Made by a program: the position numbers and the translations under genes. DNA of 63,856 nt, counting the filler, from Stramenopiles sp. TOSAG23-3 (Eukaryota): the NCBI GenBank assembly GCA_900128585.1. It is 27 parts of 27 records of this genome, joined end to end, with 100 filler letters (N's around TTAATTAATTAA, not from the genome) between each part and the next. Parts side by side here need not be neighbours in the genome. Positions count along the whole stretch, not along the records: positions 14,283 to 16,561 come from LT644926.1; 26 more parts are not named here. One strand, given 5' to 3'. A model generated the notes under the pieces. That model worked only from the letters and a program-made list of their open reading frames with translations. It did not search any database and was not told where the DNA came from. Shown piece after piece: positions 12,328-16,561 of this stretch; the stretch's first letter is position 1, and each line of letters begins with the position of its first letter.

Positions 12328-13842
12328 TCAATTTGCATCCCACCTCCGGTTATACCTTGCACCCATAAACTCTATTGCGACGACTTCGTCTGCTTTGCGA
12401 TCCGCGCCGTTGCCCATAATAAACTGCACCAATTCCTGGTCGGTACCATCGTCTTTCCAACGGCAGCCAAGTGTACTCAATCCATCAATGTCGTGAGCTC
12501 GAAGGAAATCCGGCGGTATTGTAGGGTCGGTTTTTAATTGAAGCCTTGGCCCGTCCTTTGAAGTTTTAAGAACAAGCTTTTGGCCATTCGCTTCAATGGT
12601 AACAGACCCGTCATAATAGGAACCTTCAAGTAGTTGGTAATTTTTTGGCAGTTGCGGTGAAGGTTGCAGACGATTCAGGGCAGCCTCAAACGCTGGTGCC
12701 AGTATTTCAAGTGCGGGAATCGTCCATACCGAGTCTTCGTCGACGTCACTAACGAGAGCAGAGGTAAAGACACCAAGTCGAAGATCGTCTAAGATTGTCA
12801 TGCTGCTGCGATAACCAGGGAGCTCCCCCTGCTTCCCCTTTGTCCAATATCTGTTCGAAACATATTGCATCTCAAAGGGTGTTCCGACCGCCTCGAAGCC
12901 ATTCCGAAGAAGGATTTCTGGAGCAAGCATTTCGGATATAGTAGAACCTCCCAACGGATCGTCCTTCTTCGTCGAATCGGCCCGAAACAGAAGCTTCATT
13001 AACGCTCCTATGTCCCCCGCGGAAGCCCATAGACAACCGGCAGGCGCCCCAAAGCCGCATGAGGGGCCCACGGGAACCTTCACTTCCTTCCCTTCCTTAT
13101 CCGTCCCTTTAGCGCTGCGCTCCATCGTAGTTTGGTTGTAAGCGAACGTCGCATTTGTCATCATCATCGGTCTGGTAATGTATTTCTCGACCAAGTCTTC
13201 GTAACTGAAATTTTCGCCCACATGCCCCAAGGCCCGCCCCAATAATGCCATGCCTAAATTACTGTAATGAAATCTCCGATGCACAGGAGACACCGCTGCT
13301 TTTGTGCTAAGGCTCTCCAAAACTTCGCTTTCGTTACAGCCCGGGTATTCAAACGAACTGCACGGGTAAGGGGTCTCTCGGGGTAACCCACTGGTGTGCG
13401 AAGCAAGCTCGCGCAAAGTGATCTTTCCAGAAGACTGGATGGAAAACTCTGGCATATACTTTGTCAAATTGTCTTCTAAGTTTACGTGCCCTCTGTCCCT
13501 TAAAATATATAAAAGCATGCTGGTAAAGACCTTGGTAATGGAAGCTATTCGTACCAGCGAGTGCTCGTCTGGTGGACCTTGGGAGGGAAATTTGACGTCT
13601 TTGTACCCGTACCCTTTCGTCCAAGCCGTACTCTGGTCGAATACTACCGTAGCGACCAGTCCTGACGGTATTCCCGTAGAAGCGTTCTTGAGCAAATCAT
13701 CTACCAGACGCAAAGCATCCTTTACTTCGGGGGAGCCAAGGACGGCTGCGGCCGGCACTGACGCCGGGTTTGGAAAAATCGGACAGAGTGGGGCTGCGTG
13801 CGCAACCGCAGTTAGGAGTACAAAGCATTTGATCAGCATCAT
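12328..13842 (-). CDS. Secreted beta-lactamase/PBP-related serine hydrolase (LACTBL1-like)
   Basis: Signal peptide, RIASITK (SxxK), LASHTSGL, FHYSNLG (YxN), and KQGELPGY at the third motif. Confidence 0.88.
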   Translation of the reverse strand: MMLIKCFVLLTAVAHAAPLCPIFPNPASVPAAAVLGSPEVKDALRLVDDLLKNASTGIPSGLVATVVFDQSTAWTKGYGYKDVKFPSQGPPDEHSLVRIASITKVFTSMLLYILRDRGHVNLEDNLTKYMPEFSIQSSGKITLRELASHTSGLPRETPYPCSSFEYPGCNESEVLESLSTKAAVSPVHRRFHYSNLGMALLGRALGHVGENFSYEDLVEKYITRPMMMTNATFAYNQTTMERSAKGTDKEGKEVKVPVGPSCGFGAPAGCLWASAGDIGALMKLLFRADSTKKDDPLGGSTISEMLAPEILLRNGFEAVGTPFEMQYVSNRYWTKGKQGELPGYRSSMTILDDLRLGVFTSALVSDVDEDSVWTIPALEILAPAFEAALNRLQPSPQLPKNYQLLEGSYYDGSVTIEANGQKLVLKTSKDGPRLQLKTDPTIPPDFLRAHDIDGLSTLGCRWKDDGTDQELVQFIMGNGADRKADEVVAIEFMGARYNRRWDAN

Positions 13843-14182: not shown

Positions 14183-14730
14183 NNNNNNNNNNNNNNNNNN
14201 NNNNNNNNNNNNNNNNNNNNNNNNNNTTAATTAATTAANNNNNNNNNNNNNNNNNNNNNNNNNNNNNNNNNNNNNNNNNNNNCCCCCCCCCCCGGCACTA
14301 ACCGTGCAAGTCACAATATTAGGCCTGACTCCTCGTAATGTGAGGATGTACGGCATTAAAATAATAGAATAATTCCAATAATACAAATACCAGGGGTACC
14401 AACAAAAAAAAGAACAAAATAGACTACGAGGAAGGAAGCAGAAGCTGATGAATGTGTGGGGGGGGACCACAGTTGGGCACAGTTGTGACCAATCCATGTC
14501 CGCGATGTTAATATTTATACAACAACAGGAGAACAGCAGCAAAATGATGATTTTTATTTTATGTCGTTTGTTTGTTTGCTGCAGTTTGCAACACATGCTG
14601 TTGTTGTTGTTTATTGAGTTTCTTTGTTGCTTGTTGCTTGTTGCTTCCTGTTTTGCATTTTTTGCACTTAGGCCCAACTCGAACTGGATGCATAACGCAA
14701 CACGCAAGTGAAAACGGTCCAAAAATCTTT

Positions 14731-16561
14731 ATGAACCCACCCCAAGTGAAACGTCACAAGGTAGCGATGAAGATGATTGCAGTGTTGACCGTTCTGCTTT
14801 TACAGGTCTTCGCCACTTTAGGAAGTCCACAGTGCACCCAAGGAGTAAGCAGAACATTCGACCCGTCCCATTGTGACCTAAGATCTTTAAAGCAGGAAAT
14901 TGAACGCAACGCGCATAGAAATAGAGACGAAGCAAAATACATAGAGAAGAGTGTGGGCTGGTTCGTCAAGCTGTCCAAACGCTTCAAAGATGCGACGCAA
15001 ACGGAAGCCAACTGCGAGGAAAGAGCGGAAGACAGAGAATCGCAAAAGAAAGGCGTTGAGTTCTTTAAAGCTTTGAAGAATCGTTCGTACTGTTCTTACT
15101 CGTCTTTTCCTAAATACACCAAAGACAGTATTGTCGAGAGAGCCTTTCCTAGGCCAGGTGTGTCCCCTATGCGTGCAGCCGACTCTTTGAAGCTTAAGCG
15201 TGCTTTGGCTGAAAAGGCCAAGAAGCAACACACGCGACGAGCTAATCGACCGTCTTCGGCCAGCTTCCTCGAACTTGTCGAGGGGAAGAAACACCAGTGC
15301 TATGAGGAGACTTTGGGCACAGCCACAACACTTGTTAATGGGATGCTGAAACACGTAGTACCGGATGCGATAAAAAATCAGGAGTTCACAGGTCCAAAAA
15401 ATATTAAAGGGGTCACATTCAAGAACAAGATTAAGGTCGAGGATTTTGGCATAAGAAACATGCTCATGGAGCGTAAAGGCAACACCTTTGAAATGAATAT
15501 AAAAGGGTTTCGTCTTAAAACAAACCAAATCAAGTTCAAAATTGAAACGAAATTTCTTGTGAGCTTACTGGAAATAGGCAGGGGCAGTAGGCTCTTTGGG
15601 CGCAGAAGTTCTAAAAAAAAAAAAAGGTGGGTTGGAGGGTTGGTTTGTGAAGAAAGTGAAGAAAGTGAAGAAATTTGTGAAGAAAGTGAAGAAAGTTGTG
15701 AAGAAAGTTGTGAAGAAAGTGAAGAAAGCTGTGAAGAAAATTGGGAAACGTGTAATAAAACAAATTAAGAAAGTTGCAACAAAAATCATCCCTAAATGTG
15801 AGGGGTCGGTAAGCATTACTGTTCAAAATGCAGACCTCCAAACTTCTGTTGCTATAGGCGACAAAGGCATTACCCTATCTGATTCCATCATAAGTCGGCT
15901 CGATATAGAATTTGATCAACACATTAAAGGCGTTTGCGGAAATATTGTGAAATTGTTTAAAAAACCTGTTGAGAAATATTTTAAGAAAACGATTCTCCCT
16001 AGTCTTACCAAAAGCGCTGAAACCCAGATTGCTGGCATATTGAACAAAAAAGGGTTTCTCCAAACGCTCAACTCGTTTTGTGGGGAGGGGAGCCAGAGTA
16101 ACACATTCATTCGATATACAAAAGCCTCAATAGACAATTCGTGCACAGCTAGCATTCTGCAGCACGCTGTGATCCTAATTAGAGATGCCATTGAATTCCT
16201 ACCAAAAGCCGGTGAGAAACTTGGCGGTTTCGAGAAGGAAAAAAAAGCTATAATTAAACGCTACGACGAGTTGATTAACAACGAAGATACTTGGAAGATA
16301 AAGGATCTAACGGAAATTCAGAAAGGTACAGCCCGCGAGGCTTTAAAACTTGGCAAACAAATCTGCGAAATTCTCTTCAAAGCAAAACCCGAGGACCTCA
16401 ATATTGATCTGTGCGCAATTCAAAATAAGGAGATACCGACGCTCCATAAGATCAGCGAGGTCGTCAAACAGGTAGGCCAGAACTCTCCTGAACTGTTCGG
16501 TCTTGCGTGGCGCATGATTCGATTACACCAAGTCCGAGTAAAGTGCAAAAAATGTAGATTC
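14731..16561 (+). CDS. Secreted protein with a BPI/LBP (TULIP)-like domain and a cationic insertion; one frameshift at A13 (15613-15625); 3' partial
   Basis: Signal peptide MKMIAVLTVLLLQVFATLG. Frame-1 ORF (to ~15625) and frame-2 ORF (15596-16561) join if one A is removed. The strand/helix pattern resembles the BPI N-terminal domain. Confidence 0.55.
15647..15739 (+). repeat. Coding minisatellite of GTGAAGAAA units (9/12-nt variants) encoding (V)VKK
   Basis: Nine GTGAAGAAA copies in tandem. Confidence 0.9.

Follow-up and report, generated by a model that had tools for sequence, protein, structure and literature searches.

A candidate protease-matured cationic helix at the tip of a TULIP barrel in a secretory-type protein of a marine stramenopile

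The locus described here raises the question of whether a marine bacterivore makes a secreted BPI-like protein that carries a built-in antimicrobial peptide at its lipopolysaccharide-binding tip, as a sequence-only reading of the DNA had proposed. MASTs are major uncultured bacterivores whose killing of prey is poorly known; in one bacterivory metatranscriptome, a term search showed that the main text names neither BPI nor bactericidal proteins, saposins, or amoebapores (PMC10268365).

The window, i.e., the whole 63,856-nucleotide stretch of DNA analyzed, is a string of ~2.3-kb contigs joined by N spacers, and the feature lies on the contig at positions 14283-16561. The source assembly is eukaryotic, fragmented, and 28.4 Mb in size. 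Where labelled, the sequencing runs containing this DNA were marine (runs with small word shares were left out for habitat), and one homologue bears the EukProt label Stramenopile-MAST_4; the host was taken as a marine stramenopile flagellate of the MAST type. The gene extends from 14767 to the contig end at 16561, which is overrun by both RNA and DNA contigs, and RNA libraries of three studies contain it. Its parts are:

14710..14746 (+), likely transcript 5' end; RNA contigs start at 14710, 14712, and 14746 (3/3 RNA runs, three studies)
14767..14823 (+), signal-peptide-like N-terminus; best 11-residue Kyte-Doolittle mean 2.72
14824..15261 (+), Cys-containing family pro-domain ending in a basic helix; match to paralog C3110, E 3.6e-12
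15262..15273 (+), first FL[E/Q] motif (SFLE), a putative maturation site; FL invariant, then E or Q, in 5/5 aligned members
15298..15552 (+), N-half of the TULIP (BPI-like) barrel, conserved Cys at its start; profile E 3.3e-4, paralog match E 1.5e-5
15553..15796 (+), tip insert of 81 aa: SLLE motif (15562-15573), basic stretch, amphipathic Lys/Val helix
15613..15625 (+), run of 13 A at the frame shift, probably an assembly or strain slip
15638..15787 (+), amphipathic helix, 50 aa, net charge +24, partly encoded by the tandem repeat at 15645-15748
15797..16081 (+), C-half of the TULIP barrel, in which three Cys are conserved; profile match E 8.6e-4
16082..16561 (+), start of the family's long helical region, the gene being cut by the contig end; paralogs C3110 and C2049, E 1.9e-6 and 2.3e-5

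No RNA contig fell within 14283-14700, though the DNA run covers that stretch; because the RNA contigs (not reads) start at 14710..14746 and avoid the upstream DNA, they give a weak hint that the transcript begins there. The signal-peptide-like N-terminus agrees with the earlier proposal that the protein is secreted. Homologue N-termini were similarly hydrophobic in all six checked (Kyte-Doolittle 2.08-3.23), and no segment of transmembrane strength was found downstream of the N-terminus in the sequenced part of the gene. The pro-domain, which by inference is helical, has three Cys invariant in all five aligned members and matched no Pfam family.

The proposed TULIP/BPI-like fold was borne out by models of homologues, in which a long helix lies in a curved antiparallel sheet and which match solved TULIP domains. 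Foldseek placed BPI and LBP first for the models of both P0005 and the own-genome paralog L005. The P0005 model (24 sequences, mean pLDDT 58.8) returned BPI (E 1.8e-7), LBP, and CETP on top, and Der f 7, Der p 7, JHBP, SPLUNC1, and BPI at Z 9.2-10.6. For L005, mean pLDDT was 40.9 overall and the central, insert-bearing barrel alone was folded (~50-70); that barrel aligned with BPI 6-196 at Z 11.1 and rmsd 3.9 over 173 residues, the top eight rows were all TULIP, and CETP and the mite allergens were within 1 Z of BPI. In the Atlas, the insert-free domain fell with TULIP-clan clusters and families (features 0.85-0.92). A profile from 10 insert-free homologues matched the window halves at E 3.3e-4 (positions 3-85) and 8.6e-4 among 882 sequences, the next window frame reaching only E 2. 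Four Cys occupy matching barrel places in the window, P0004, P0005, P0041, and P0007; by inference, one pair sits at the insert base and the other connects the first helix with the last. Modeled as two chains, the window's barrel halves scored 0.59 against a best control of 0.02 (contact agreement 86%, pLDDT 72), a score of 0.60 or less being a mark reached by 5/78 solved complexes and by all four passing mismatches. The halves folding together thus lends weak support to a two-chain state, and likeness to solved TULIP structures may drive the score. On these models, which are of modest confidence and depict homologues at ~22-30% identity, the window domain is a TULIP (BPI-like) barrel.

Assignment to the BPI/LBP family itself was not upheld: there was no Pfam LBP/BPI match, identity to solved structures was 9-13%, and the cysteines differ. 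Neither the Pfam LBP_BPI_CETP model nor its C-terminal counterpart matched window pieces, paralogs, or eight homologues up to E 1, and sequence and profile searches found no related PDB sequence. The conserved disulfide given for the BPI N-domain, C135-C175 (PMC4620459), would fall near L005 residues 585 and 625, by an approximate placement, whereas the L005 Cys are at 547 and 596. The protein resembles the BPI/LBP N-domain (1ewf, 4m4d) and Dictyostelium BpiC in having a TULIP barrel, in being secreted, and in carrying positive charge at the same tip, but it is only 11-13% identical to them, has other cysteines and no LBP_BPI_CETP match, and places one barrel inside a much larger protein in lieu of the two-barrel boomerang of BPI/LBP. 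One barrel is present in the window gene, P0004, and P0007, and two in the P0005 subfamily, for which the model places the barrels relative to each other at low confidence (pTM 0.33; rmsd 13 to BPI). Der p 7/Der f 7, JHBP/Takeout, SPLUNC1, latherin, CETP, and PfTUPA-type proteins share the same fold (Z 9-10.8; Atlas 0.85-0.92), and we know of no such tip module in any of them; unlike PfTUPA-type proteins, the sequenced portion of the gene has no PqiA or transmembrane part. The protein is thus a member of the TULIP superfamily and not of the BPI/LBP family.

What distinguishes the barrel is its tip. Between two barrel strands, the window has 81 aa of net charge +31 where insert-free homologues have 11 aa, so that the cationic amphipathic insertion of ~70 aa noticed earlier is correct as a net gain. 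Both models show the insert as helical, at low confidence, and put it between the two longest strands; counted from both ends of the aligned range, which is approximate in not being a residue-level alignment, it maps to about BPI 92-95. Residues 86-102 of BPI form its polycationic LPS-binding region (PMC4620459), and the claim that the insert occupies the hairpin equivalent to BPI's cationic tip therefore fits. BPI/LBP have a short hairpin at this place, whereas the present family has a 33-86-aa module of motif plus helix. The 50-aa helix contains no acidic residue. Its hydrophobic moment at 100 degrees is 0.638 (peak at 98 degrees), a value matched by none of 20,000 same-composition shuffles, confirming the suspected amphipathicity; with its net charge of +24, the helix combines the high positive charge and amphipathic helix of cationic alpha-helical antimicrobial peptides. 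Among 1,105 ORFs of at least 100 aa in a 508-kb genome sample that includes the window, it ranked first of 25 matches. A HK97-gp10-like Pfam match above cut-off fell on the Lys/Val repeat and was taken as compositional.

The insert had been attributed to a minisatellite that expanded the tip into an antimicrobial peptide. The tandem repeat (15645-15748) shows periods of 9, 12, 21, and 33, the best being 33 nt (11 codons; 3.2 copies, 90% match). An insert is found at the identical barrel position in L005, P0004, P0005, P0041, and P0007 as well as in the window, i.e., in six lineages, and in all six it starts with an FL[E/Q]-like motif. The expected variation in module length is seen among these homologues, which span 33-86 aa: 33 in P0007 (net +2), 49 in P0004, 60 in L005, 79 in P0041, 81 in the window, and 86 in P0005. 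P0004 has an additional basic copy ahead of the barrel, and in two barrel-less paralogs, L103 and L104, a Lys helix directly follows the pro-domain motif, the next 60 residues having charges of +12 and +18. From these sequence comparisons, the insert is a family module in which an FL[E/Q]-type motif is followed first by a basic stretch and then by an amphipathic Lys helix. Because the module occurs at the L005 tip without a DNA repeat and in two paralogs without a barrel, it appears to predate the repeat, which only lengthened it, contrary to the minisatellite account. A DNA repeat with a best period of 33 nt underlies three helices (window, L103, and L104). Eleven codons make about three helical turns, so repeat expansions keep both helix faces in register, and we read the 33-nt period in three loci as selection on amphipathicity. 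Release of a peptide at RR/KK sites, also suggested earlier, does not match the conservation: the conserved FL[E/Q]-like motif is N-terminal to the helix, the helix runs directly into a Cys-bearing strand, and the alignment contains no conserved site between the two, though Lys pairs within the helix could be cut. As to more such helices elsewhere in the proteome, no further motif-plus-helix module turned up in the 508-kb sample, which represents 1.8% of the genome and favors the longest contigs, and a genome-wide cassette is thus unsupported. When the helix, the insert of the paralog, or a degenerate pattern served as query, the own genome returned only the query loci or nothing, such low-complexity queries being handled poorly; two helix-bearing paralogs that these searches missed surfaced later through the conserved C-terminal region.

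The family to which the module belongs was visible to profiles alone. A word-based homologue search with the window protein yielded none of 7,994 candidates, a metagenome scan for the window gene, from which near-identical records may be missing, had no match, Pfam assigned no meaningful family across window pieces, paralogs, and homologues, and the Cys-rich C-terminal region had no usable match in the Atlas. Searching with the barrel C-half found two paralogs; a profile of five sequences then found eight proteins among 1.84 billion representatives, and a second profile three plus nine, of which four were already known. The conserved C-terminal region found six loci in the own genome and three metagenome loci, one of them probably spurious. 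Overall, the genome has at least seven loci of the family, whose products are large secretory-type preproproteins. A full member opens with a signal-like start and a Cys pro-domain, continues through an FL[E/Q] motif into a long helical region, and closes with a Cys-rich end and a terminal RRLL; members of 1,000-1,700 aa are mostly helical, Cys-rich sequence without family match. The barrel is optional, as at least three members read from the N-terminus (L103, L104, and L093) lack it. In a second subfamily (P0005, P0023, P0024, and P0041), the protein is mainly a pair of barrels, of which only the first carries the insert. The C-termini of P0005, P0041, and P0021 have a basic helix like the pro-domain end of long members and break off within an FL motif, which looks like a permutation of the modules. 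In L005 (2741-4708, -; G000:C3110), the half-barrels are ordered N1-N2-N3-insert-C1-C2-C3, with the opening Cys in N1 only and the closing Cys in C3 only, a pattern expected if three barrels were nested tip-in-tip to form a stalk; in the three-barrel model, the central barrel folded and the outer repeats, where there was no alignment depth, had pLDDT <50. The TULIP barrel in this family tolerates tip inserts of 33-86 residues, and possibly nesting as well.

The motif that opens the insert bears on how the module may be used. An FL[E/Q] motif ends the pro-region in all five aligned members, as an xFL[E/Q] or S-hydrophobic-x-E motif does in secretory proteins processed in the plasmepsin X/SUB2 manner. 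SFLE is a plasmepsin X site in Plasmodium SUB1 (10.1101/2023.01.13.524002), and SFLE, RFLE, and NFLQ are among the sites reported for that protease (10.1101/2023.01.13.524002, PMC10113190); by analogy, the tip likely carries a protease cut site. Maturation of the FL[E/Q] type, known from work on apicomplexan parasites, may accordingly also take place in free-living stramenopiles.

We tentatively favor, at somewhat less than an even chance, a protease-matured, tethered membrane-attack helix on the presumably lipid-binding barrel of a bacterivore's secretory protein, with putative cleavage, location, and activity. The protein would enter a lysosome-like or regulated secretory compartment, in which a protease would cut at the FL[E/Q] motifs. 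After the cut at the tip, the cationic helix would become the free N-terminus of the C-half chain and would stay tethered to the barrel through the interlocking of the two halves and, probably, a Cys pair that links them. It could then bind and disorder the anionic envelope of bacteria that the cell has engulfed or touched, with the barrel taking up lipid or LPS, an action like that of BPI/BpiC and of the AlyL antibacterial insert, without membership in either family. In Dictyostelium, BpiC helps killing in phagosomes, and the AlyL insert (ABS), composed of basic residues followed by an amphipathic helix of ~40 aa, is required and transferable for killing Klebsiella (PMC8545105). The two inserts are alike in that layout, in belonging to secreted proteins of bacterivorous protists, and in being absent from paralogs; they differ in that the ABS resides in a lysozyme, has four repeats with GS linkers, and has no FL[E/Q] motif reported in the section consulted (PMC8545105). 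The activity of the ABS was demonstrated, whereas that of the present insert is putative, and homology is not claimed. The Pfam-invisible family is a concrete candidate for prey killing, and P0005 offers a natural pair of barrels with and without the insert in one chain.

Several observations weigh against the membrane-attack helix. The insert of the MAST-4 orthologue is short and only +2, too weak for an antimicrobial peptide, which argues that killing is not what the family does in general. Across the genome, SFL[E/Q] shows no enrichment (4 observed versus 3.3 expected in 221 long ORFs). The same design of motif plus basic amphipathic helix was proposed as a membrane anchor in Toxoplasma ROP2/ROP18; in ROP18, specifically, SLLE precedes basic amphipathic segments (PMC1797617). 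ROP2/ROP18 and plasmepsin X substrates share a signal peptide, a pro-region, an S-hydrophobic-x-E or FL[E/Q] motif, and basic amphipathic segments with the window protein; they differ in coming from alveolate parasites, in being Arg-rich, and in having kinase cargo and a proposed anchor, whereas here the organism is a free-living stramenopile and the module also lies inside a folded domain. The long helical and Cys-rich regions may in any case dominate function. Still more doubtful is the full extrapolation to a MAST family of protease-armed, two-chain bactericidal effectors, with a portable "FL[E/Q] + cationic 11-mer helix" that is set into a BPI-like barrel at its LPS-binding tip, exposed by a maturase of the apicomplexan style, and tuned in length by 33-nt repeat expansion, and with a stalk of three nested barrels in one paralog.

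The membrane-attack helix ranks ahead of three other readings. In the first of these, which is credible if on the unlikely side, the helix is a docking arm that holds the barrel on ingested membranes or lipid particles for lipid extraction and recycling. An 11-residue periodicity is typical of apolipoprotein- and perilipin-type helices, and the 11-codon repeat unit in three loci matches it; the L103 helix had a sub-threshold Perilipin match (E 0.071). In the Plasmodium digestive vacuole, lipid is recycled by the TULIP domain of PfTUPA, and an amphipathic helix docks that domain in simulations (10.64898/2026.09.11.750981). The ROP18 segments after SLLE, proposed as anchors (PMC1797617), point the same way, and Der p 7, JHBP, and CETP are within ~1-2 Z of BPI. 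However, a charge of +24 per 50 residues with no acidic residue would suit anionic bacterial envelopes over neutral lipid surfaces, and the insert is at BPI's charged tip.

It is quite unlikely that the proteins are structural or cargo components of extrusomes or of a cell coat, the FL[E/Q] motif marking maturation, the helix serving in condensation, sorting, or adhesion to anionic surfaces, and the barrel being an optional spacer. At least three members without a barrel (L103, L104, and L093), the mostly helical, Cys-rich, family-less proteins of 1,000-1,700 aa, and the threefold, stalk-like repetition of half-barrels in L005 would all suit such a role, but in the separate P0005-type subfamily almost the entire protein is two barrels, only one of them bearing the insert, which shows that barrel plus insert is kept on its own.

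The remaining reading concerns the frame. Frame A runs from ATG 14767 through the barrel N-half and then reads the repeat as an acidic Cys/Glu/Ser string until it meets a stop codon (15766-15768). The Lys/Val helix and the barrel C-half are encoded in frame B, which from 15578 onward stays open as far as the contig goes. The 1-nt frameshift repaired earlier could be placed at the 13-A run (15613-15625), frames A and B being open on either side; the one-base shift of that correction stands, but the Lys before Gly-Gly number four and not five. Evidence from reads came as contigs of 4/24 listed runs (one DNA, and three RNA from three studies). The oligo-dT RNA contig X4-12 (depth 3.6) aligns over 15614-15759 with five unaligned letters before 15614, which, for this single shallow contig and with the letters themselves not displayed, fit a 12-A run; at 15648, it has a variant that would terminate the acidic frame but amounts to a mere substitution in the cationic one. 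Overlapping contigs of run X4 reach 16202. Paralogs have the same insert in one continuous frame, which is a stronger argument for the cationic frame than the RNA contigs. The paralog frames, the X4-12 stop variant, and the open homologous flanks make the cationic frame most likely the translated one, as had been supposed, and splicing out of the repeat finds no counterpart in the data, as no splice joint was present in the gene in any of the four runs. The acidic-frame reading, which ends at 15768, lacks a homologue, and acquires a stop from the RNA variant, was rejected. That the copy is a broken allele or pseudogene, or that the shift is spliced out with a small intron, either of which would mean that the cell does not make the long helix in the form given here, is very unlikely: the assembly does have 13 A, many GT-AG pairs could restore the frame (e.g., 15559-15637 with a GTGAG donor), and no contig of the four runs bridges the 13-A run with 31 letters on each side, but, besides the missing joint, RNA contig X6-23 continues 14 letters beyond the donor-like site at 15559, X4-12 links the A run to the repeat, and the frames are open and homologous on both sides.

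Short contigs at a depth of ~38, about ten times that of the locus, matched the repeat at window positions 15651-15701 in one DNA and one RNA run; they were left out as probably repeats of other organisms, and suggest that repeats coding Lys/Val like this one are common in other marine genes.

The literature searched, which included few subscription journals, contained no description of the family or of a TULIP tip insert, and supplements of MAST genomics papers may list the genes; the parts and their logic each have precedents, and the combination was not found described.

Other observations concern family loci and their surroundings. A further member is represented at window positions 49826-51424 (+) by its C-terminal portion. 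This portion shares 62% identity with P0004 over 541 aligned positions and ends in the same residues, a hint of gene conversion or of a gene model that is chimeric; it could even be the 3' terminus of a gene whose pieces fell on different contigs. The barrel-less genes with a Lys-rich helix directly after the FL[E/Q] motif are L103:683-3898 (-) and L104:2044-4698 (+), the latter having a frame change near its Cys-rich region. Adjoining it, L104:733-1500 (+) is a secreted-type ORF with a short Lys/Gly/Phe-rich loop between cysteines and a sub-threshold HetE-N match (E 0.0037). L059:3507-4736 (-) encodes a secreted coiled-coil protein with an internal SLLE, which we take to be trichocyst-matrix-like, and beside it L059:1-3345 (+) encodes a large protein, rich in Cys, that contains SFLE and has a hydrophobic C-terminus. 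On a neighbouring, unlinked contig of the window, 12328-13842 (-) encodes a secreted hydrolase of the serine beta-lactamase family (PF00144, E 1.9e-45).
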